DNA of 64,000 nt from an uncultured Hyphomicrobiales bacterium (GTDB lineage Bacteria > Pseudomonadota > Alphaproteobacteria > Reyranellales > JAQSWP01), in contig CAYWLS010000005.1 in NCBI GenBank assembly GCA_964458605.1, forward strand, positions 81,244-145,243, read 5' to 3'. A program made the position numbers and the translations under genes. Below, one piece after another: positions 47,548-64,000 of the stretch. The notes under the pieces are model-generated. The model was given only the letters and a program-made list of their open reading frames with translations. It made no database searches and was not told the DNA's origin. Each line of letters starts with the position of its first letter. Position 1 is the first letter of the stretch.

Positions 47548-47847
47548 TCAAAGCCGCTGCGATAGGCGGGCTTTGGCGTGGCGGTCTCTCCAGACGCGCT
47601 CGAACGCCTCGCGGCTGATTTCGACGGGCTCAAATACCGGATTGCTGGCGATCTCGGCAAGGGGCGGCACCGGATAGACGCCTAGACCGGTATCGCCGAC
47701 TTCTCCGGTCGCATCGGCATAGCCGCAGCTTCCATCGGCATGAAGCTCGACCTTGCGAACCTCATAGCGCTCCTCGTCCAGCTCGCTATAGAGCCAGACC
47801 GGCAGATCGGCGTCGGAATGGATCCATTTGACCTTGATATCGCGCAT
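47548..47847 (-). CDS. hypothetical 99-aa protein
   Basis: Clean ORF in lower-G+C DNA with an AT-rich divergent promoter shared with kptA. Function not recognised. Confidence 0.6.
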   Translation of the reverse strand: MRDIKVKWIHSDADLPVWLYSELDEERYEVRKVELHADGSCGYADATGEVGDTGLGVYPVPPLAEIASNPVFEPVEISREAFERVWRDRHAKARLSQRL

Positions 47848-47894: not shown

Positions 47895-48444
47895 ATGGCC
47901 AAGACTGACGAATCGCTGAGCAAATATCTCAGCTACATCCTGCGCCACCGGCCCGACGAGATCGGGCTGCAGCTCGATGGGCAGGGTTGGGCCGCGGTGG
48001 CGGAACTGCTGGCCAAGAGCGCGGCGCACGGCCGCCCTATCGACTTCGGCGCTTTGGTGAATGTCGTCGAGAACGGAGCCAAGAGCCTCGTCCTTGTCCG
48101 AAAACCGGACTCGGATCCGCGCATTGCAAGGGCATTCCGTCCCGATCGAGCTTGGCTTGCAGCCGGTGCAGCCGCCCGCGCTTCTGTACCACGGCACCGC
48201 CTTGAAGTTTCTCGATTCGATCCTGCGGACAGGGCTGGCGAAACAGGCGCGCCATCACGTCCATTTGTCGAGCACGCCGGACAGCGCCTGGATCGTCGGG
48301 CGCCGACGCGGCAAGGCCGCGATACTCCAAATACAGGCGGAACGGATGCACCGCGACGGTTTTGCGTTCATGCGAGCCGAGAACGACGTCTGGCTGACCG
48401 ATGCCGTGCCGACGAAGTATTTCAAACTGCTAGCTCAAGATTGA
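47895..48444 (+). pseudogene. kptA: RNA 2'-phosphotransferase KptA/Tpt1, interrupted by a single frameshift
   Basis: The N-terminal part is in the 47895 frame (LSKYLSYILRHRPDEIGLQLDGQGWAAV..VVENGAK). The remainder is in the 48061 frame (SENRTRIRALQGHSV..LLYHGT..HHVHLS..NDVWLT). The junction lies near 48075..48095. Confidence 0.8.
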
Positions 48445-48553
48445 GCCGCGGCGGCGATAGTGGACTCTGGCGATAGTGGACTCTAGAGCCCGACGCTCGC
48501 TTCAGGAACCGACTTTGTCACCCCCCGCATCAGCGTTTTGACCTCCGCCCGCT

Positions 48554-48904
48554 TCATGATAAGCCGAACTGGGCCTTGAATTCGCTCTCGCTGATGACGC
48601 TGACGGGTAGAAACAGCGACTTGTCGTCGGGATCGCGCAAGCCATCGATGTTCAACATGTGCGGCGTCGGCGGATAGGTGCACACGACCTGGGCCACGAA
48701 CGCTTTGCCCGCCAGATCGGGATTGTCCTTGGCCGCGCGGCCGGCTTCGGCGAAGTGCATGCACAGCCCCGGCTTCTTGTGTAGCAGTTCCTCACGCTCA
48801 CGCGGATCGCCGATCGGCTCGTTGTCGAAGATCACCAGCGCCAGGCGGTGGTCGTCGTTGGGCAGCCGCACCACCATGTCGATCGCATCGCTTCTCAGGC
48901 TCAT
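48554..48904 (-). CDS. immunity-like small protein (paralogue of 60865..61257)
   Basis: 116 aa. Shares the identical 13-mer QVVCTYPPTPHML and a C-terminal E.F.AQFG motif with 60865..61257. Downstream of the toxin-like gene. Confidence 0.7.
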   Translation of the reverse strand: MSLRSDAIDMVVRLPNDDHRLALVIFDNEPIGDPREREELLHKKPGLCMHFAEAGRAAKDNPDLAGKAFVAQVVCTYPPTPHMLNIDGLRDPDDKSLFLPVSVISESEFKAQFGLS

Positions 48905-48952: not shown

Positions 48953-49714
48953 TCAATACCGATCGCGCAGCGACGGCAGATCGCGCGGCACGAAGCCATG
49001 ACGCTCTCGGAATTCGGCCTCGGTCACGAACTCGACCGGCAACACGATATCAGGGTATGTCGGATCGCTTACCGATGTGATCGCGCGCATTGCCGGGGTC
49101 GGCATCGCGGCATAGACAACTTCGATCAACGGCCTATCGCTAGAGAACACATAATTATATTCCTCGAAGTCCCCCGAGGCGACACGAGCGGCGCAGCGCA
49201 GCAGCTTTTCATGCAGCGTTGCCTCTCGCTGTGCGGCGCTGGCCACTCGGCCGTCATCCAGCACTACAATAGTGCCGCCGAGTTGCTGGCCCTTGACGTG
49301 CACAAGGAGATCTCCGGGAGATCGCCCGATCCACGTCAGCCATTCGACGCCCAGCTTGATCCGTTGCTGAACCTCATTTAGGGACAAAATTGTATACGAC
49401 TCGTTACCGGCCCAGACATCATCCCATGCTGGTAAGTGGAGCAGAAGAGGATCAGGACTTCTTCCTCTATAGGCCAATTGCGTGATGAACGGCCGAGGCG
49501 TCCCTGTCGCCGTTGCTAGATTTGCACGATCTTCGGGCAAGTCCCACTCAGATTCGGGCTCGCCGTCAAAATAGAGTTCCAGCCACGCCAAGTCATCAAC
49601 ATTACAATGCAAGACATTATTCCATGCATAGGTTTCTCCAAAATTCCGAAAGCACGCCGTAAGGACGCCGATATCCAGCGGCTTTTTGGAGAAGAAGAAA
49701 AAAGAGTTCGCCAC
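48953..49714 (-). CDS. immunity-like protein, fusion of two domains found as separate genes at 61257..61655 and 60865..61257
   Basis: 253 aa. The N-half aligns to the 132-aa ORF (NESYTILSLNEVQQRIKLGVEW vs NEYGVIFTVREIQRRLKSGEEW). The C-half aligns to the 130-aa ORF (EAEFRERHGF vs LEGFYAQFGM). It begins 15 nt after the toxin stop. Confidence 0.7.
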   Translation of the reverse strand: MANSFFFFSKKPLDIGVLTACFRNFGETYAWNNVLHCNVDDLAWLELYFDGEPESEWDLPEDRANLATATGTPRPFITQLAYRGRSPDPLLLHLPAWDDVWAGNESYTILSLNEVQQRIKLGVEWLTWIGRSPGDLLVHVKGQQLGGTIVVLDDGRVASAAQREATLHEKLLRCAARVASGDFEEYNYVFSSDRPLIEVVYAAMPTPAMRAITSVSDPTYPDIVLPVEFVTEAEFRERHGFVPRDLPSLRDRY

Positions 49715-49729
49715 GTTGAATCCTCAATC

Positions 49730-52384
49730 TCACTTAAATTTATCCAATAAATCCTGACGATTTTTGATAGGTGTATGGCCTTTACCAGCGATAGATTTCT
49801 CCGCGTGCCCCATATTGCGACTATACCCAATCCCGGGCAATCCAGACACACTCACCGCGCGATCAAGTTGCTCCGCAAGTCCACTGGCGCTGCTGCTTTC
49901 TTCAATGACATATTTCCTCGTGACGATATCAACTTCTTTTCTTAAAAGCGGGTTGTTCAAATCGATGATGAAGCAATGCACGCAGACCACTTCGTTTGGG
50001 TGGTTTTTCTCAATCTCATTGGCGAGCCCGGCTACTCGGCGCTGTGACCTGTTTTGGCCTGCATCAATCGCCGTTGCTTGAAATGATCTCGTGCCATCTG
50101 CACTACGCACTTCGCTGCCCTTATCCGCCCGCCAAAGAAACTGGCCAGGTGATTTTGTCGAAGTCGAAGGCATCGGCAACAGAATCGTATCGGGCTTGTA
50201 AGCTGCGGCAAATTTCGCCACATCCGCTTCGGTCTTGATCAAGCCTGCCGACTGAAATGCCTTCATCTGGTCGGCGAAATCGACATGGTAAGCCGGATCG
50301 ATGGCGCGCTTCCATGCCGCCGCCGGACTACCCCATCCGGGCAGCGGCGGCGTTGGGCTTGGCAATGGTCTGCGCGGCGCACCCGGCGGCAGGTCAGTTG
50401 ACGGCTTCGCCCCCGCCGTCACACCCGGCTGCCCGACACTCCCCGGAGATTGACCACCCGGGCTCGGCTGCCCGGACGACGACGATGCAGCACTCGCTGT
50501 ACCTGGCTTTCTCGGCGGCACCGCAGCGGACCCGCCACCGCCGCTGTCGCCGCCGGCCGGGGCGCGGGCGATGCGGCTGCCGAAGCCGCCCATCATTCCC
50601 AGGCCGAAGCCGGTGAAGCCAGCCATCAGCGAATCGATGCCGATCTGAGACCAGGGCACTTCCTCGCCCCATCGCTCCCGCCATGGCTTGGTCAGCGATT
50701 CGCTGGCGGCGGTCTTTGCGCTGACCGCCGCGCCGGTCTTCAGGGCGTCGAGGGCGATTCTTCCGCCCTGCGTCTTGACGACGTTGGCGAGTTCGCCGCT
50801 GCCGATCGCCCGCAGCACGCTGGGAATGCCGATCCGGGCGATGTTGAAGATCTGCTTGCCGGCCATCCCCAGCGGAACGATGTTGGTCGGGTCGCTGACG
50901 AAGCCCAGCGTCTTGCCCGCCGCGCGAATGAACGGATCGTCCGGCGCATGGCCGATCTGATAGATCCGGTCTTGCATGGCGTCGAACAGGTCGGCCTTGG
51001 CTCGCGCTCGCTCCCGCGTCATGAACGGCTCGAACGGCATGGCGCGCTTCAGCTCGGGATCGTTGTTCCACTCCTCTTCGGTCAGGAACTCCACGCCCAT
51101 GCCGCGCAGCGCCTGTTCGATTTCCGCCTGCTTGGCCTTTCGCTGGTCTTCCGGCAGCGCCGCCAGGTACGACGCGAAGCCCTGCCGCACGTCGATCGGC
51201 CAGGGGAAACTGGCGATCTGGTCGGGCTTGCGCTCCCCGTTGAGGACGAGGCCGTAGAGGCGCTTCGTCTTCTCCGCGTCGAGCTGCTGGATTGCCGAAG
51301 GCGGCAAGGCGATCTCGTCGAGACCGCGGCCAACCCATTGGTGGAAGCCTTGCCCTATCTCGGCGCCGAAATAGCGAAAAGTCGGCGCCACATAAGGCTT
51401 GCTGTTCACAACGGCTTCGATATCGCTTGCCGACACCGTCGAGGCTGGCGCCGGCGGCGCAGCGGGTGACGGCGGCGACGCAGCCGTCGAGCCGCTGGCC
51501 GGGATGGTCGATGGATGGTCGCCATCGCCGCTGGCGATCGGACCGATGTCGCCGCCCGGAGGCGTGCCAGCGGCGCCGCCACCGGCGATGTCGTCGCCGC
51601 TGTCCTTGGCAGCGATATAGTTGGCGCCGGCATCGGTGACGGCGGCGAGCCTGGCATAGGTCGCCGGATCGACCTGGCCGGCGGCCTGGGCCAGCACGAT
51701 CCGCGCGCCGGGCACATTGCCGCTGTCGAACTGGCTGGCGATCGCCGCGCCGAACAGATGGCCGTTCCATTCGCTGGCGCGGCGATTGGTTTCCTGCGCG
51801 CTCCAGCCGTTGCGCTGGCCGATCTTGCGCCATTCGCCATCGCCGCGCGCCACCGCCAGATCGAGCCGGAACGGATCGTGGCTCCAGTAATGCGCATCGT
51901 GCAGATCGGCCGCCAGTGTGCCGAGCGATCCCAGGTCGAGCATCTGGCGATGCTGGCCAATGCGATAGCTTTGGCCGTCCTGCAGGTGCTCCTCATGCGC
52001 CTGGTCCAGGCGCGGCTGCAGCAGCGGCAGCACTGCCGGCGAAACGCTGGCGATGGCCTGGTCGCGATGGCTTTCCAAGGTGTTTCGATAGGTGTCGTAG
52101 GCGTCGGCCGCGCCGTTCTGGCCGCTCTGGCTGCCGTAATCGCCCAGCGCCGTCAGCGCGGCGCGGCGATAGACGTTCAGCGCGTCGTTGGCGGCGCTGT
52201 CATTGGCCCTAAGACGTCGGTCGAGCGAATAGGTGCGGTACGGGTCCGGCCCGGCCGGAGCGGTGCCGGACGAGACCGGATCGAACGGGATGATGTCGGT
52301 GCCGGGATCGAGGGCGGTGTCGGGATCGGGAGGGGCGAAGATAAGGGCCATGCGCGTCGCGAGCGTTGGATGGGGTCCGCCCAT
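49730..52384 (-). CDS. large modular polymorphic-toxin-like protein (toxin A), 884 aa
   Basis: Modules: an N-terminal region, a core shared with 61663..63282 (MPFEPFMT.., DPTN.., Gly-rich hydrophobic stretch), Pro/Ser/Gly linkers, and a low-G+C C-terminal domain homologous to the C-terminus of 61663..63282. An alternative start lies at 52351. Confidence 0.75.
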   Translation of the reverse strand: MGGPHPTLATRMALIFAPPDPDTALDPGTDIIPFDPVSSGTAPAGPDPYRTYSLDRRLRANDSAANDALNVYRRAALTALGDYGSQSGQNGAADAYDTYRNTLESHRDQAIASVSPAVLPLLQPRLDQAHEEHLQDGQSYRIGQHRQMLDLGSLGTLAADLHDAHYWSHDPFRLDLAVARGDGEWRKIGQRNGWSAQETNRRASEWNGHLFGAAIASQFDSGNVPGARIVLAQAAGQVDPATYARLAAVTDAGANYIAAKDSGDDIAGGGAAGTPPGGDIGPIASGDGDHPSTIPASGSTAASPPSPAAPPAPASTVSASDIEAVVNSKPYVAPTFRYFGAEIGQGFHQWVGRGLDEIALPPSAIQQLDAEKTKRLYGLVLNGERKPDQIASFPWPIDVRQGFASYLAALPEDQRKAKQAEIEQALRGMGVEFLTEEEWNNDPELKRAMPFEPFMTRERARAKADLFDAMQDRIYQIGHAPDDPFIRAAGKTLGFVSDPTNIVPLGMAGKQIFNIARIGIPSVLRAIGSGELANVVKTQGGRIALDALKTGAAVSAKTAASESLTKPWRERWGEEVPWSQIGIDSLMAGFTGFGLGMMGGFGSRIARAPAGGDSGGGGSAAVPPRKPGTASAASSSSGQPSPGGQSPGSVGQPGVTAGAKPSTDLPPGAPRRPLPSPTPPLPGWGSPAAAWKRAIDPAYHVDFADQMKAFQSAGLIKTEADVAKFAAAYKPDTILLPMPSTSTKSPGQFLWRADKGSEVRSADGTRSFQATAIDAGQNRSQRRVAGLANEIEKNHPNEVVCVHCFIIDLNNPLLRKEVDIVTRKYVIEESSSASGLAEQLDRAVSVSGLPGIGYSRNMGHAEKSIAGKGHTPIKNRQDLLDKFK

Positions 52385-57224: not shown

Positions 57225-57497
57225 CTAGCGGGCGGCGGCGAGCTTCCTGATCTCGGCCATGTTGGCCTGGCAGGCATGCAGCGCCGCCAGCGCGATCTCA
57301 ACCACCGCGGCGGCGTCCTTCTGCGTCGCGATCGGCCGGGGCGCGGGGTCGTCGGGGCAGACCAGCAGCGCCTGGGGGATGGTGACGCGCTCGACTTTAG
57401 TGACGACGATCGGCGGCGCAGGCTGGGGCGTGCCACAGGCGGCTAAAGGAAGCGCACAGCACATCGGCCACAGGGCCATCCTGCTCGGGCGGCGCAT
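57225..57497 (-). CDS. o-spanin (Rz1-like outer-membrane lipoprotein), overlapped with the i-spanin gene
   Basis: Signal and lipobox ALPLAAC followed by a Pro-rich mature part. The gene starts inside the 3' end of 57397..57813 in another frame. Confidence 0.7.
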   Translation of the reverse strand: MRRPSRMALWPMCCALPLAACGTPQPAPPIVVTKVERVTIPQALLVCPDDPAPRPIATQKDAAAVVEIALAALHACQANMAEIRKLAAAR

Positions 57498-57813
57498 TCT
57501 GGATCTCCATCAGGCGTTGGTTGAGATCGGCGTTCTCCTGCTGCAGCCGGACCAGCCGCGCCGCGGTGGCGGCATCGGTCATCGCCTGCCAGGCCTTCAG
57601 CGCGGCGATCGCCTGCCGTTGCTCGAGCGCGGCCTGGGCGGCGATGCGCGTGCGGTAGTCGGCGAACGCCGCGCGCTGCTGCGCCAGCGCGCTGTCGCTG
57701 CGCTGCAGGCGCAAGGTCTGCACGCCCAGCAGCACGGCCAGCGCGATCAGCGGCCATAGCCAAAGCGGCAGCTTGCGCACCGCGGCCAGCGCAAGAGACA
57801 GGCTCGCGCTCAC
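57397..57813 (-). CDS. i-spanin (Rz-like)
   Basis: GTG 57813 overlaps the endolysin-like stop (GTGA). N-terminal TM LPLWLWPLIALAVLLGV is followed by a coiled-coil-like Ala/Gln/Arg-rich region. Confidence 0.7.
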   Translation of the reverse strand: MSASLSLALAAVRKLPLWLWPLIALAVLLGVQTLRLQRSDSALAQQRAAFADYRTRIAAQAALEQRQAIAALKAWQAMTDAATAARLVRLQQENADLNQRLMEIQNAPPEQDGPVADVLCASFSRLWHAPACAADRRH

Positions 57814-58589
57814 GACGTCGCCCTGGCCGGCCGGTTCTTCTGGCGCTGCAGCCACCAGTGCCAGGCCAGGCCGGCGGCGATCAGCGCCAGCAGCGCCACC
57901 CCGCCCCATTTGAACAGATAGCCGTATTGCTGCAGGAACGTCTGGCCGCGCTCGATGACGACGCCGGGATCGATCGGCGCCGGGATCGACCCCGGCGGCG
58001 CGGCCGGCAAGCCGGGCAGCGGCGGCGGATAGGTCGGCGCGATCGCGCTGCCGGTGGCGGCAGCGGTTGCCGCAGCCGCGCCGGCGGCCGGCGCCATCGT
58101 GCCCAGCGGCCTTGGCGGGCGCAGCACGCCGTATTGCGCCAGGCCCCAATCGATCTGCTGGTCGTTCCACCAGCGATAGGGATCGCCGCCCTGCTCGACC
58201 GCGGCCATCGCCAGCAGCACCGGCTTGAGATGCGCGTAGCGATGGAAGTCGAGGACGGCGTTGGCGGCAAAGCCGGTGGCGCCCGTCACGCGCGCGATAT
58301 AGGCGGCGGTGTCGTTGCGATCCTGCGGCGGCGCCCAGCCCGGCCGATAGTCGGGCTGGCCGTAGCTGCCGCTGCCGCCGATCAGCGTCGCGATGGTGTC
58401 GTGGCCCCAGCGGTCGTAATGGGCGATCACGTTGCCCGCCGCGCAGCGCCAGCCCTTGGCCGGCCCGTCGAAATGCAGGAAATCGCCGGCGCCGGTGTGT
58501 TCGACGGCGATCACGCCTTGCCATTTGCTGCGGCCATCGGGTCGCACATTGAGCGGATTGTTGAAGCGCACGCCGGAAGGAAGAGCCAT
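57810..58589 (-). CDS. putative endolysin-like protein with C-terminal TM anchor
   Basis: Positioned between the holin-like and spanin genes. N-terminal RFNNPLNVRP..W.G motif, a Pro/Ala linker and a C-terminal TM WGGVALLALIAAGLAWHWWL. Enzymatic class not established. Confidence 0.5.
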   Translation of the reverse strand: MALPSGVRFNNPLNVRPDGRSKWQGVIAVEHTGAGDFLHFDGPAKGWRCAAGNVIAHYDRWGHDTIATLIGGSGSYGQPDYRPGWAPPQDRNDTAAYIARVTGATGFAANAVLDFHRYAHLKPVLLAMAAVEQGGDPYRWWNDQQIDWGLAQYGVLRPPRPLGTMAPAAGAAAATAAATGSAIAPTYPPPLPGLPAAPPGSIPAPIDPGVVIERGQTFLQQYGYLFKWGGVALLALIAAGLAWHWWLQRQKNRPARATS

Positions 58590-58597
58590 CGGTCACC

Positions 58598-60309
<1,712 letters not shown>

Positions 60310-60443
60310 TCACGGCGCTCCTCCACCGGCATTGTCTTGGCGTCGCCGCTTGGCGCGGCGATCGTAGCCAGGGTGGTAAGCCCGCGACCGGTTGGCGAGC
60401 AACAATCAGCTATTCACAGGGGGGCGGAGGCGTGGCCAATTGG

Positions 60444-60750
60444 TCATGGCGGCGATCCAATTCGCCAACGGCTTGGACCAGGCGGCAAAGACGTGCTGGG
60501 TATTACCGCCGATGCCCCGGCTTCCGAGCAGCGGTGCATCACCGTCCGCAACGGCGCCCCGCCGATGCCGGCCAGCGCATTGTCCGGCAGCGATGCCGCG
60601 CCATGAACTGCCCCGGCAGCGAATGCCACCAGCCGTCGCCGAACTTCGCCGCCAGGTACTGGCCCAGCGGCGTCTCGTAATCCGTCAGCGCCTGAAAGTA
60701 CCCCCCGCATCCGCTACACGATCGCTCTCGATCGGATCAAGCAGGTCCAC
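60444..60750 (-). pseudogene. decayed duplicate of the 5' end of toxin B
   Basis: 60545..60750 aligns nearly base-for-base with 63068..63282. ATG is replaced by GTG, and single-base indels cause frameshifts and an early stop. Similarity decays with indels down to about 60444. Confidence 0.8.
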
Positions 60751-60864
60751 CAGCCCGGCCCCTCATGCTCGAAGCCGGCAACACAACGATATTTATGCCC
60801 GGCACTTTGCTCATCGACCACTCGATAGTCGCAACCATCGAGTGATACCAGAACAGCCGCTGCA

Positions 60865-61257
60865 TCAGGTCGGGTTTCGTTCCACAGATTGCGCCGCGCC
60901 GGGCGGCCTCATGCCGAACTGCGCATAGAAACCCTCGAGGCTCATCACCTCGACCGGCACGATCACCGACTTGTCCTCGCGGCTGCGCAACGCATGGATC
61001 TCCAGCATATGCGGTGTCGGCGGATAGGTACAAACTACCTGGATCACCGCCGCCTTGCCGACCACGCTGGCGTCGAAATTCTCCATGGCGCCCGACGTGA
61101 TGATCTTGAGATAGCCGGCGAGCTTCCTGTGCAACAATTGCTCACGCTCACCCGCGTCTGCGATCGGCTCGGCGTCGAAGATCACCATGGCGATACGTCC
61201 GTCTTCGTCCGGCAGCCGCACCGCCATGTCGAGATTGGTCGGTTCGTTCAATGCCAT
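60865..61257 (-). CDS. immunity-like small protein (B2)
   Basis: ATG 61257 overlaps the upstream TAA by 1 nt (TAATG). Paralogue of 48554..48904 (QVVCTYPPTPHML). Confidence 0.7.
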   Translation of the reverse strand: MALNEPTNLDMAVRLPDEDGRIAMVIFDAEPIADAGEREQLLHRKLAGYLKIITSGAMENFDASVVGKAAVIQVVCTYPPTPHMLEIHALRSREDKSVIVPVEVMSLEGFYAQFGMRPPGAAQSVERNPT

Positions 61258-61655
61258 TACAGGAACTCCTCGCCGACCGTCTCCCACTCCTCGCCGGATT
61301 TCAGGCGACGCTGGATTTCCCTTACAGTGAAAATCACGCCGTATTCATTACAAATGAATAAATTATCAGTAGCTGGAAGCCGGCTGACCGCTAAGTTAAC
61401 TGACACCGAGTTTCTGAACGGTAGACCCGCAAAAAAAGGGCGACCAATCAAAGCGAGTAATCTGACCTTCTCATCTGGTTCGAATTCTGCCAGCACAGAA
61501 TCCGTCCCTCCCAAATCGATATGAAACCAACCCCAGTCATCATTCTGAACCACCAACCTTTCACCATAAACCGCAGCTTTGCCAATATCGTGGTACAGAT
61601 CGGCAAGGGCGGGCAGGTCAAGATCTCTCTCGGAAACAATGATCATCTCTTTCAT
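61257..61655 (-). CDS. immunity-like small protein (B1)
   Basis: 132 aa in low-G+C DNA. Starts 7 nt after the toxin B stop. Homologous to the N-half of 48953..49714. Confidence 0.7.
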   Translation of the reverse strand: MKEMIIVSERDLDLPALADLYHDIGKAAVYGERLVVQNDDWGWFHIDLGGTDSVLAEFEPDEKVRLLALIGRPFFAGLPFRNSVSVNLAVSRLPATDNLFICNEYGVIFTVREIQRRLKSGEEWETVGEEFL

Positions 61656-61662
61656 GCGCGCC

Positions 61663-63282
61663 TCATGGTTTGATAACCTCTCTGAGCAGCTTTTCGTCTT
61701 TGGTCACCAGTCCCCCTGCATTGCCAATGCCTCGAATGATGCTAGGACCCAAATCTGGTCCATAGCCGATAGTCGGAAAGCCAGTTAGCTTTTCGTACCG
61801 TAATACTTGATGGGTAAGTTTTCCGCCTGTTCCTGCTTTTACCTGGATCACTGCATTGCGAGTCAAGATATCGATTTCTCCTACTTTATCTCCAGTATGC
61901 GGGTCGATTAGCTCGCAATTAGTGCAAACGACATGTCCCGGATTGTCCCGCTCGATTTCATTGGCGCGGTCAGCTACATGCTTATCGGTCGACGCAAAGC
62001 TTCGTCTGCCATCCTTGCCGATGCTGATCGGGGTCGTTTCCTTTAGCACGAGTTTAGGAGAGGTTATGCCCTTGGCATAGTTGGCCATGCCAAAATGTAC
62101 CTGGTCGGCCCGATATTTGTAGCCGTTGTCGATGAAATCTTGAATAGCGACACCAAACAATTTGTGTTTGTCTGCCAGACTCATCTGATCGAGGAGTTGT
62201 TCGATAGGCGTATTGCCTAATGCACCGGTCACCCGTGCGCCGGATTTTGCAGGAACAGAAGCTACTGAAAGTTGTTGGCTGGTTACTCCGCTCATCCCCG
62301 CAGGTGACTGCGTCGGTACAACGGTGTTTGGGCCTAGCCCAGATGCATTAGCCAAGGGATTTCCTGGAGTAACGCCACTTGGCATGCTCTGAGTTTGTAA
62401 TGAAACTTTCCCGCCAACCGGCTCCTGGGGCGACCGCAGGATGCGGACACCATGGGCGCCCGCGCCCACCACGCTGCCCAGCGCCGCCGCCAGCCCCGCA
62501 TTGCGCCAGATCTCGCTGTCGCTTAGCGTCTCGCCCCAGCGCGCCAGCGGCTGCTTGATCGCATAGCCCTGCACCACCGCCGGCAGCGCGCCGCTCAGCG
62601 CCCCGATGCCGCCAGCCTTCGCCAGTGTCAGGCCACCGGTACGCGCCAGCCCCAGCACCAGCTTGCCTCCCGCGCCCCAGCCCAGCAGGTTGGTCGGGTC
62701 CGCCGCGCCCCCCGCCATCCCCGCCAGGAACCCCAACGTGCCGCTCAGCACGCCATCCGGCCGATGCGCGATCAGCCAGTCCCGCACCCGGTTGGTGTCG
62801 TAGATCGCCGCCTTCGCCTTGGCCCGCGCCGGCGTCATGAACGGCTCGAACGGCATGTCCCGATAGTCCGGCGACGCCCGCCACTCGGCCTCGGTGTAGA
62901 ACCTGTAGCCCGCCTGCTTCAGCACCTGCTCAACCTGCGGCAGGACCTGCTGCCGCTGCCCCGCCGGCAGGGCGTTCAACCGCTCCATGACCAGGTCCTG
63001 CGGCAACGGCGTGCTGGGCATCGCCACCGACGCCCCCGGCTGCCGCGCGGCCACCGGGATCAGGTGCATCACCGTCCTCAACGGCGCCCCGCCGATACCT
63101 GCCAGCGCATTGTCCGGCAGCGATGCTGCCGCCATGAACTGCCCCGGCAGCGAATGCCACCAGCCGTCGCCGAACTTCGCCGCCAGGTACTGGCCCAACG
63201 GCGTCTCGTAATCCGTCAGCGCCTGAAAGTAGTCCCCCGCATCCGCCACACGATCGCTCTCGATCGGATCAAGCAGGTTCAT
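61663..63282 (-). CDS. polymorphic-toxin-like protein (toxin B), 539 aa
   Basis: ATG 63282 overlaps the stop of the upstream gene (ATGA). The core is homologous to toxin A. The low-G+C C-terminal domain has ANEIE, VVCTNC and EIDILTRNAVIQVK motifs. Confidence 0.75.
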   Translation of the reverse strand: MNLLDPIESDRVADAGDYFQALTDYETPLGQYLAAKFGDGWWHSLPGQFMAAASLPDNALAGIGGAPLRTVMHLIPVAARQPGASVAMPSTPLPQDLVMERLNALPAGQRQQVLPQVEQVLKQAGYRFYTEAEWRASPDYRDMPFEPFMTPARAKAKAAIYDTNRVRDWLIAHRPDGVLSGTLGFLAGMAGGAADPTNLLGWGAGGKLVLGLARTGGLTLAKAGGIGALSGALPAVVQGYAIKQPLARWGETLSDSEIWRNAGLAAALGSVVGAGAHGVRILRSPQEPVGGKVSLQTQSMPSGVTPGNPLANASGLGPNTVVPTQSPAGMSGVTSQQLSVASVPAKSGARVTGALGNTPIEQLLDQMSLADKHKLFGVAIQDFIDNGYKYRADQVHFGMANYAKGITSPKLVLKETTPISIGKDGRRSFASTDKHVADRANEIERDNPGHVVCTNCELIDPHTGDKVGEIDILTRNAVIQVKAGTGGKLTHQVLRYEKLTGFPTIGYGPDLGPSIIRGIGNAGGLVTKDEKLLREVIKP

Positions 63283-64000
63283 TGCGGCAGCCCATCGATG
63301 GCGTAGCTGGGGAGCTGATACTGCGCAGGGTAGCCCAATAGCATCCCGGGAGGCAGCACCGCCCAATCGCGGTGCTCCTTGCCGAGCGCCAGCACTTGAT
63401 CAAGTGTGAAGACGAGCGGGCGGCCGGTTTCGTCCGGCAGCAACTTGCCGCTGCTCAACACCAACGCATATTCGCCGTCCTTGCCGCTCTTGAAATCGAT
63501 CCAGCGGGCCTTGGCGCTCTCTTGCGCTGCCGTTGCTTTGGCCATTTCCACCAGTTGCGAATCATCCTCGGGCAATCGCTTGAGGAAGTAGTTGGCGATC
63601 AGTTGGCCGCGCAAATAGTGAAATCCTTGAATCAGGCGTTCTTTATCCCCTTCCGCCGCCCGAGGAATGAATGCCGCCACCAAATTCTGATCGATCAACG
63701 GCACACGATCGCCCATCACCGCGCCAATTCCCGCGCCTGGATCGGGCCGATCGCGCGCTACATTGGCGATCATCGTCGCTTCTTCTATGCCCCTGTTGCG
63801 ATAGTCTTCGTTATGCGTCCATTGTGTCGTCATCTCGTAAACGGCAAAATATGGCGCAAACGGACTCATCTTGCGAAGCAGGTCGGCATGCTCGTCTGGG
63901 CTCAGCTTATGATGGGCGACGATGCTGGATTGAAGGAGATCCAGGGCTCCATCCTCATTGCCGCGACCGGCGGCCTGCACTATGTAGGGCAGCGTCTTGG
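63279..64000 (-). CDS. hypothetical protein translationally coupled to toxin B, 5' end outside window
   Basis: The reading frame is open to the window edge. No family recognised. Confidence 0.6.
   Translation of the reverse strand, partial: KTLPYIVQAAGRGNEDGALDLLQSSIVAHHKLSPDEHADLLRKMSPFAPYFAVYEMTTQWTHNEDYRNRGIEEATMIANVARDRPDPGAGIGAVMGDRVPLIDQNLVAAFIPRAAEGDKERLIQGFHYLRGQLIANYFLKRLPEDDSQLVEMAKATAAQESAKARWIDFKSGKDGEYALVLSSGKLLPDETGRPLVFTLDQVLALGKEHRDWAVLPPGMLLGYPAQYQLPSYAIDGLPQ

Follow-up and report, generated by a model that had tools for sequence, protein, structure and literature searches.

How does a toxin-like gene come to stand alone among core metabolic genes, and by what route would its product reach another cell? 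The question is raised by toxA, a gene on the minus strand (49730..52384) of a 64,000-nucleotide stretch of DNA, called the window here, from an uncultured Hyphomicrobiales bacterium (assembly GCA_964458605.1, contig CAYWLS010000005.1, positions 81,244 to 145,243). The open reading frame (ORF) is intact, begins with ATG and encodes an 884-amino-acid (aa) chimera, ToxA. A paralogue, toxB, lies in the same window; we refer to toxA and its surroundings as locus A and to toxB and its surroundings as locus B. The answer that we consider probable is that toxA encodes a phage-derived polymorphic toxin, in which an N-terminal domain (N-domain) and a trunk related to podovirus ejection proteins are fused to a linker and toxin, and which would be delivered by phage particles.

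The initial annotation had read four modules from the translation of the 884-aa ORF and had taken toxin B for a paralogue with a shared trunk, and both points hold. The N-domain (aa 1–311; 51452..52384, on the minus strand like the rest of toxA) ends in a Pro/Ala/Ser linker; this N-terminal region, which reaches to about residue 311–316 and whose terminal stretch is PPSPAAPPAPAS, is absent from toxin B. The trunk follows (aa 312–606; 50567..51451), with a glycine-rich segment, GIDSLMAGFTGFGLGMMGGFG, at its C-terminal end, and then come a Pro/Ser/Gly linker (aa 607–687; 50324..50566) and the C-terminal toxin domain (aa 688–884; 49733..50323). By BLASTP, ToxA residues 331–884 align with residues 53–566 of the product of 61663..63366 (minus strand), the ORF that contains toxB, at 28% identity (E = 2e-43), and the post-trunk regions of the two proteins align even when taken alone (E = 2.6e-14). 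Identity is 32% in the trunk and 38% in the toxin core. No further copy of any toxA module was found elsewhere in the window. Pfam and NCBIfam scans recognised no part of ToxA or ToxB (Pfam E ≤ 0.1–1), tblastn of both proteins against plasmid collections gave no match, and a homology search with full-length ToxA returned only itself, the low-complexity linker having swamped the word index. An exact copy of toxA with identical flanks is present in the Logan assembly SRR11845634.

What the initial annotation missed is that the trunk is a phage ejection module and that locus B lies inside a prophage. An exhaustive profile search with the alignment of the A and B trunks retrieved 307 proteins (E ≤ 1e-3). 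In almost all of the 149 matches for which a trunk was scored, it occupies the N-terminus, and most of the scanned family members (54 of 70) match phrog_342, the T7 gp16 family, with the trunk aligning to profile positions ∼310–420. A common body follows the trunk in 117 of 139 members and ends in a tail motif, A..AA.C..R, whose Cys is nearly invariant. Between these conserved parts, the 70 scanned members have variable middles that include ddrB-ParB (10 members), PBECR3 (4 members), PBECR1, Zeta_toxin, RelA_SpoT, LPD3, ART-PolyVal, SLT and GNAT domains; LPD3, seen in 2 of the 70, is the only domain associated with large polyvalent proteins. Some trunk proteins also carry an N-terminal lysozyme or SLT domain, as gp16 does.

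Gene order around the relatives agrees with this. Canonical trunk genes lie between a gene for a peptidoglycan-hydrolase internal virion protein and a phrog_684 gene, upstream of the tail fibre. In L001, a prophage in a Rhodospirillales metagenome-assembled genome, the order is a gp14-like protein, an 830-aa M23 peptidase protein, a trunk protein with PBECR3 and an 870-aa phrog_684 protein; in the IMG/VR contig L003, it is tail tubular proteins A and B, phrog_418, a 902-aa transglycosylase protein, the trunk protein, phrog_684 and a fibre; and L024 has the gene order of these two. An isolated temperate podovirus, Pseudomonas phage Ab31, provides a further member: the trunk profile picks out its ORF15 (E = 7e-14), which has the tail motif at its end and sits between ORF14, annotated as an endolysin or structural lysozyme, and the virion structural protein ORF16. 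The trunk is thus of phage origin, given the PHROG matches, the profile relatives and the genomic context of those relatives. On sequence grounds, the ToxA trunk belongs to the N-terminal module of the podovirus internal-virion or ejection protein family, but ToxA has neither the genomic position nor the C-terminal tail of that family. Indeed, ToxA, ToxB and the trunk protein of L023 (a 3-kb metagenome contig) all end in a toxin domain and lack the tail motif that nearly all canonical members keep.

Locus B places this module in a phage setting within the window itself. The toxB gene (61663..63282, minus strand) encodes 539 aa from the ATG at 63282, comprising trunk, linker and a toxin domain with an intact E...D...QxK motif, and ToxB residues 211–337 match phrog_342, 'internal virion protein with endolysin domain' (E = 1e-7). 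Immediately upstream, and coupled to toxB translationally through an ATGA overlap, is the C-terminal part of a large internal virion protein that runs off the window (63279..64000, minus strand). Its product matches the C-terminal 180 aa of the 830-aa M23 protein of L001 co-linearly in BLASTP (57.4 bits, E = 4e-13), a match that neither tblastn nor a 3-sequence profile reproduced. Downstream of toxB come immunity-like genes, a tail-fibre gene, an endolysin gene and a spanin-like gene. As the match of the upstream C-terminus, the tail fibre and the endolysin all fit the synteny of the family, locus B is within the ejection-protein operon of a podovirus-type prophage. The fit is partial. The upstream protein and the tail fibre are in place, but between the trunk gene and the tail fibre (60289–61663) no homologue of the ∼850-aa phrog_684 protein was found, whereas such a gene occupies that position in L001, L003, L024 and phages Ab31 and Tyrion. 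Between the immunity genes and the tail-fibre gene is a frameshifted 5′ stub of a trunk gene (60518..60749, minus strand; ∼232 nt), a direct repeat of toxB positions 63048–63281 at 87–97% identity, in which GTG replaces ATG and two single nucleotides are deleted. Locus B has been rearranged through recombination in the trunk. A look-up of the exact ToxB protein returned 2.4-kb contigs that are broken at the repeat.

The N-domain can be traced, at greater distance, to the same phage operon. In the metagenomic contig L020, a 304-aa protein is 41% identical to ToxA residues 49–278 (E = 1e-53), and its gene lies directly upstream of the gene for P0007 (L020 2269–3261), a 330-aa trunk protein with a ParB-like C-terminal domain. 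Therefore, the N-domain and trunk of ToxA correspond to separate adjacent genes in L020. A split or fusion of this kind had been foreseen, with the gene upstream of toxB as the partner, and the idea stands in principle; the partner does not, as ToxA residues 1–330 show no similarity to the visible product of 63279..64000. Instead, ToxA residues 55–216 weakly match phrog_1044, the Ab31 ORF14 family (E = 0.016), and a profile built from 11 ORF14-type N-termini (from Pseudomonas, Xanthomonas, Vibrio, Acinetobacter, Escherichia and Enterobacter podoviruses) matches ToxA residues 163–248 co-linearly with 17.2 bits, compared to maxima of 8.9 bits in 5000 shuffles and 4.5 bits in 149 other family proteins. 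The N-domain showed no significant similarity to the N-termini of the large proteins of L001, L003 and L002 (BLAST, hhalign), its profile found nothing among PDB sequences, and an alignment scan of metagenome and viral contigs also came back empty; no peptidoglycan-hydrolase domain was found in ToxA. By these comparisons, the N-domain is a distant relative of the N-terminal end of Ab31 ORF14-type 'structural lysozyme' proteins, which are encoded just upstream of phage trunk genes. ToxA thus combines, in a single polypeptide, sequences related to the N-terminal portions of two proteins that follow each other in the ejection operon.

Where the phage-derived part ends, base composition changes. 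Using a maximum-likelihood method, we located a change point in G+C content at third codon positions (GC3) after codon 624 of toxA (∼50,512), from 0.835 to 0.563, and another after codon 316 of toxB (∼62,418), from 0.867 to 0.472. Both breaks fall at the trunk/linker junction, and the first 606 codons of toxA have host-like GC3 values (0.82–0.85). A drop in G+C had been placed at about 50.3 kb by eye, and while the break is real, the position is not: raw G+C falls from 0.69–0.71 to 0.45–0.52 between 50.4 and 49.6 kb, displaced from 50.5 kb because GC-rich Pro and Gly codons of the linker mask the junction.

An independent breakpoint is provided by L023. Its trunk is 59% identical to that of ToxA, and homology ends at aa ∼626–641, just after 'GGGSAAVPP[RK]' at the start of the linker, that is, at the position of the GC3 change point. 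Beyond the linker, L023 encodes a toxin of this family that has diverged but keeps D...ExK intact; its own immunity gene follows, and both have low GC3. The toxin domains of ToxA and L023 are too diverged for BLAST. With a NUDIX gene and a formamidase-like gene as flanks, L023 is another stand-alone locus. P0007 shows a ParB-like C-terminus on the same trunk subtype, and this domain appears to be a second toxin type common to trunk proteins and RHS arrays. The GC3 breaks and the L023 breakpoint agree with the cassette exchange proposed at the outset for the low-G+C C-terminus. We conclude from these sequence comparisons that the toxin cassette and its immunity gene were most plausibly exchanged by recombination in the linker (junction at ∼50,512) and came from a source of lower G+C. 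Several hallmarks of polymorphic toxins (Zhang et al. 2012) are seen here in the sequence, namely a conserved trunk with a variable toxin, a co-varying downstream immunity gene, a toxin domain common to different delivery types, and cassette exchange via recombination. The ParB-like domain of P0007 recurs in L016 (4700–5560), where it is encoded by an RHS-type orphan cassette that follows the P0154 toxin/immunity pair.

A profile of the ToxA and ToxB C-terminal domains found five relatives. One is P0151 (JGI metagenome 3300050046), a 217-aa stand-alone protein that is 48% identical to the ToxA toxin domain; another, P0155 of Candidatus Electrothrix, is an RHS repeat-associated core protein of which the toxin domain forms the C-terminus. 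An AlphaFold2 model of the ToxA domain, based on seven sequences, has a pLDDT of 89.6 and a pTM of 0.85 and adopts the α/β core fold of PD-(D/E)xK enzymes. Its top Foldseek matches in the PDB are the CRISPR ancillary nucleases Can2 and Card1 (E = 7e-5; 117 columns at 3.5 Å) and EndoMS, although the structural matches are modest (TM 0.35–0.42). Viral structural matches are weak and include annotated endonucleases. None of the Pfam Tox-REase models (Tox-REase-1 to -10) matched the isolated domains at E ≤ 1. The model thus resembles a restriction-endonuclease-fold, PD-(D/E)xK nuclease-like domain. The P0151 contig has gene sizes of 217, 252, 116 and 119 aa that mirror locus A, and P0151 could be an orphan cassette or a truncated gene call.

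Alignment of the family reveals a conserved E (in ANEIE), a conserved D and an (E/Q)xK. The lysine is kept in seven of the eight members (ToxB, P0151–P0155 and L023) but not in ToxA, where the motif residues are E792, D819 and E828-E829-S830; the catalytic motif is accordingly complete in ToxB and incomplete in ToxA. A run of three AGC serine codons (49889–49897) begins where the family has its conserved catalytic lysine, and another lysine, K825, is found five residues upstream of Ser830. With Ser830 in place of the conserved lysine, the ToxA toxin may be attenuated or inactivated.

The immunity-like genes that had been noticed downstream are likewise genuine in the sense that they are paralogous between the two loci and belong to a family that recurs after related toxins. 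Next to toxA is imm253 (48953..49714, minus strand), encoding the predicted cognate immunity protein, an imm132-like domain fused to a DUF6572-like one. The N-terminal half of this 253-aa protein matches the 132-aa protein of locus B (imm132; E = 3e-13), and the C-terminal half, a third DUF6572-like domain, matches imm116 (E = 3e-11) and imm140 (E = 6e-10). The second immunity-like gene, imm116 (48554..48904, minus strand), encodes a small DUF6572-like protein of 116 aa that has 53% identity with the 140-aa product of locus B and weakly matches PF20212. A DUF6572 gene is also present in L020. In locus B, the corresponding pair imm132 and imm140 (the latter DUF6572-like) occupies 60865..61655 (minus strand). 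The first immunity domain of both loci shares the low G+C of the toxin (0.49–0.51; 0.51 for the N-terminal half of imm253), which the DUF6572-like genes do not. No Pfam or NCBIfam model matches the imm132/imm253 N-terminal family. Its members are found 3′ of the toxin in loci A and B and in L023 (49 bits), and in an unannotated ORF after the toxin in L016 (13.1 bits, a score that none of 2000 shuffles reached); what follows the RHS toxin of L015 gives a weak match (5 bits). These data indicate that the downstream family is co-inherited with the toxin, which it is predicted to neutralise.

If these pieces are put together, the following mechanism can be proposed. The N-domain, elsewhere encoded by a separate gene, would be a distant relative of the N-terminal region of the large internal virion protein (a peptidoglycan hydrolase) in Ab31- and AF-type podoviruses, and the trunk would derive from the next protein of that phage operon, a family whose members as a rule bear effector domains for injection and which shows remote similarity to the stretch of T7 gp16 that separates the periplasmic part from the cytoplasmic one. 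The linker, the restriction-endonuclease-fold toxin and the immunity gene would have arrived as one cassette. ToxA, or at least its paralogue ToxB, would be packed into podovirus-type heads through the trunk, and the toxin protein would leave the particle before the DNA and enter a recipient cell. Everything C-terminal of the glycine-rich segment would pass into the recipient cytoplasm and so place the C-terminal nuclease there, a topology suggested by the alignment of phrog_342 to the trunk together with models of gp16; in the published model, T7 gp16 has a periplasmic N-domain, and the region that follows its putative membrane segments is in the host cytoplasm (PMC8954989). In the producer or lysogen, the downstream proteins would neutralise the toxin. 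Because locus B sits in a podovirus-type late operon, we take the phage particle to be the relevant machinery for delivery; the Tad locus, previously pointed to as the only large machinery in the window, is irrelevant. Stand-alone locus A would need particles from a resident prophage, for example that of locus B. A bolder version of this idea strikes us as rather unlikely: the stand-alone trunk toxins (ToxA, L020, L023) would be 'hitch-hikers' encoded on the chromosome and taken up in trans, as cargo, by the heads of resident podovirus-type prophages, the particles would deliver polymorphic toxins in Gram-negatives, with cassettes exchanged with RHS systems, and the island immunity genes would define the survivors.

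Several observations weigh against phage-particle delivery of a functional ToxA. No phage genes were found in the neighbourhoods of locus A, L020 or L023, and none of 50,697 phage genomes gave a tblastn match to ToxA or ToxB. The C-terminal tail missing from ToxA, ToxB and L023 might be required for incorporation into the particle. Trunk profiles gave no significant match to T7 gp13–gp17 (E = 0.015–0.2 for gp16, in which residues 326–379 are the best, though not significant, local match) and none to gp17 of the epsilon15-like phage Tyrion, though the latter is syntenic and keeps the C-terminal tail motif. A profile sequence search found no PDB relatives of the trunk. The idea of a classical transmembrane helix in the trunk was rejected, since the glycine-rich segments are moderately hydrophobic (maximum KD19 1.2–1.4). 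Packaging of trunk-family proteins into virions is a prediction from synteny and PHROG annotation, and the paper on Ab31 contains no virion proteomics. Lastly, Ser830 and a frameshifted KptA gene in the island are signs of decay, and the sole visible prophage, that of locus B, may be defective, as its phrog_684 gene is absent and its trunk stub pseudogenised.

Such decay could mean that locus A is what a lost or rearranged prophage has left behind and that, if anything keeps it in place, it is the immunity genes, which would protect against the injected toxins of related phages, with ToxA neither active nor delivered. This is possible, though not likely. Besides the serine at a position where seven of eight family members have lysine, the damaged KptA gene and an island free of phage genes, it would account for imm253, which resembles a fusion of two once-separate immunity genes, for the rearrangement of locus B as well, and for the 90% cluster of ToxA, to which the source genome and one Logan assembly contribute the only two members. 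Yet the 884-codon frame is intact with host-like GC3 over its first 606 codons, and the N-domain/trunk/toxin organisation recurs stand-alone in L020 and L023 with different flanks, a recurrence that points to a module being maintained and not to random debris. Relocation of the lysine has precedents among PD-(D/E)xK enzymes, and in ToxA a lysine, K825, lies five residues upstream of Ser830. Another reading turns on the company that the trunk keeps. Polyvalent proteins have been proposed to be injected with phage DNA (Iyer et al. 2017, PMC5512222), and ToxA and ToxB might similarly be anti-defence or take-over effectors, injected nucleases acting on nucleic acids of the host or of rival elements, with the small proteins regulating them or protecting the phage genome. 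Canonical trunk members do carry ddrB-ParB, PBECR1, PBECR3, ART-PolyVal, LPD3 and Zeta toxin domains and lie in late virion operons, as described for polyvalent proteins (PMC5512222). We nonetheless deem this improbable for ToxA and ToxB, which lack both a string of effector domains and the family tail and, like L023 and P0007, end in a cassette common to RHS polymorphic toxin systems; a co-varying family of small proteins lies 3′ of these toxins, the composition and homology breakpoints are typical of toxin/immunity cassette exchange, and the trunk itself has no Pfam match. The two readings, polyvalent effector and inter-bacterial toxin, are not mutually exclusive.

Least credible of all is that ToxA is a conventional secreted or contact-dependent toxin, exported by a type I, V, VI or VII secretion system (T1SS, T5SS, T6SS, T7SS) or through the Tad locus 20 kb away, and that its resemblance to phage proteins is incidental. 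The stand-alone genomic context and the occurrence of the toxin domain on an RHS protein would fit this. Pfam and NCBIfam searches, however, found no PAAR, RHS, VgrG, LXG/WXG, MuF or haemagglutinin-repeat domains in ToxA or ToxB, which sets both apart from RHS, T6SS, T5SS and T7SS effectors; ToxA has no N-terminal signal-peptide-like segment, and homologues of its trunk and N-domain are phage virion-operon proteins only. Export of such toxins by Tad pili is not known. Judged by its sequence features, the locus appears to work as a polymorphic toxin system, and not as a MuF, RHS, T6SS or T5SS toxin, and we continue to favour a phage-derived toxin for delivery by particles.

To our knowledge, phage-borne polymorphic toxins have so far been known through the MuF family. 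The likeness is considerable: MuF toxins (Zhang et al. 2012, PMC3482391; Jamet et al. 2017, PMC5576092), including Apk2 and Bxa (PMC11699363), combine a virion-associated N-terminal module with variable C-terminal toxins, have one or two adjacent immunity genes, lie in late regions of prophages and have been proposed to be delivered by particles, a route that is still hypothetical (PMC5576092; PMC11699363). ToxA and ToxB differ in having no MuF domain (by Pfam) and in their carrier, which is a podovirus ejection module in a high-G+C Gram-negative genome, whereas MuF is a head-morphogenesis protein of Firmicutes and Bacteroidales phages; toxA-type copies also stand alone outside prophages. With T7 gp16 and phrog_342 and with Ab31 ORF14–ORF15, the family shares operon position, the PHROG match and, in ORF15, the trunk. 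Here the differences are that the direct match to gp16 is insignificant, that ToxA lacks a peptidoglycan-hydrolase domain, and that the N-domain and trunk, fused in ToxA, are divided between two consecutive proteins in phages. The toxin domain in turn is like Tox-REase and PD-(D/E)xK proteins such as Can2 and Card1 in its predicted α/β core, its E...D...(E/Q)xK motif, its location at RHS C-termini and its dedicated immunity gene; it is unlike them in giving no Pfam Tox-REase match, in its low TM range and, for ToxA, in the absent lysine.

If the favoured explanation is correct, the trunk of podovirus ejection proteins would be a second virion-targeting module, unrelated to MuF, that has captured RHS-type toxin/immunity cassettes, and short-tailed phage particles may carry bacterial toxins by a route that has been little described. 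The window offers a test case, as it holds a copy in a prophage operon together with a fused, stand-alone copy, and with it one can ask directly if toxins can be brought into cells by ejection proteins, and if a chromosomal island is able to load cargo into phage particles. Even as a relic, the locus would document gene fusion, cassette exchange at a linker junction and the traffic of toxin modules between phages and RHS systems.

The remaining features of locus A belong to its surroundings. The island spans ∼5 kb and, as originally described, lies between core metabolic genes (for an amidase, a hexapeptide-repeat protein, an HMGL-like lyase and a family III CoA-transferase); there is no bacterial secretion system in its vicinity. 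The position of toxA, with the amidase gene on one side and the gene for the hexapeptide protein on the other, is not that of a phage late gene. No tRNA gene that could serve as an integration site is present in the window, and no repeats flanking the island were found. At its left end is a DUF6881 gene (47548..47847, minus strand; PF21812, E = 5.5e-33). Between this and imm116 lies the KptA/Tpt1 RNA 2′-phosphotransferase pseudogene (47895..48476, plus strand), part of the island, in which PF01885 is split over two frames; in the independent Logan assembly, the gene call for KptA is only 106 aa. An intact KptA gene (L020 97–648) and a DUF6572 gene adjoin the related stand-alone trunk-toxin locus of L020, so that the association with KptA recurs.

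Beyond the immunity genes of locus B, the podovirus tail-fibre gene (58852..60288, minus strand) matches phrog_1640 (E = 2e-23), many other tail-fibre PHROGs and PF21722. Downstream is a gene for a phage endolysin-type protein with a C-terminal hydrophobic segment (57810..58589, minus strand; phrog_873, E = 6e-26), the endolysin-type domain of which also occurs as an N-terminal extension of the trunk proteins P0017 and P0019. The adjacent gene (57397–57800, minus strand) encodes a coiled-coil protein with an N-terminal membrane segment that has no Pfam match and is spanin-like by eye. The tail-fibre protein itself has a T7-type N-terminal adaptor and a C-terminal Gly_rich_2 domain, and its gene contains a collagen-like Gly-X-Y array made up of 18 copies of a 9-nt repeat (59528–59833).

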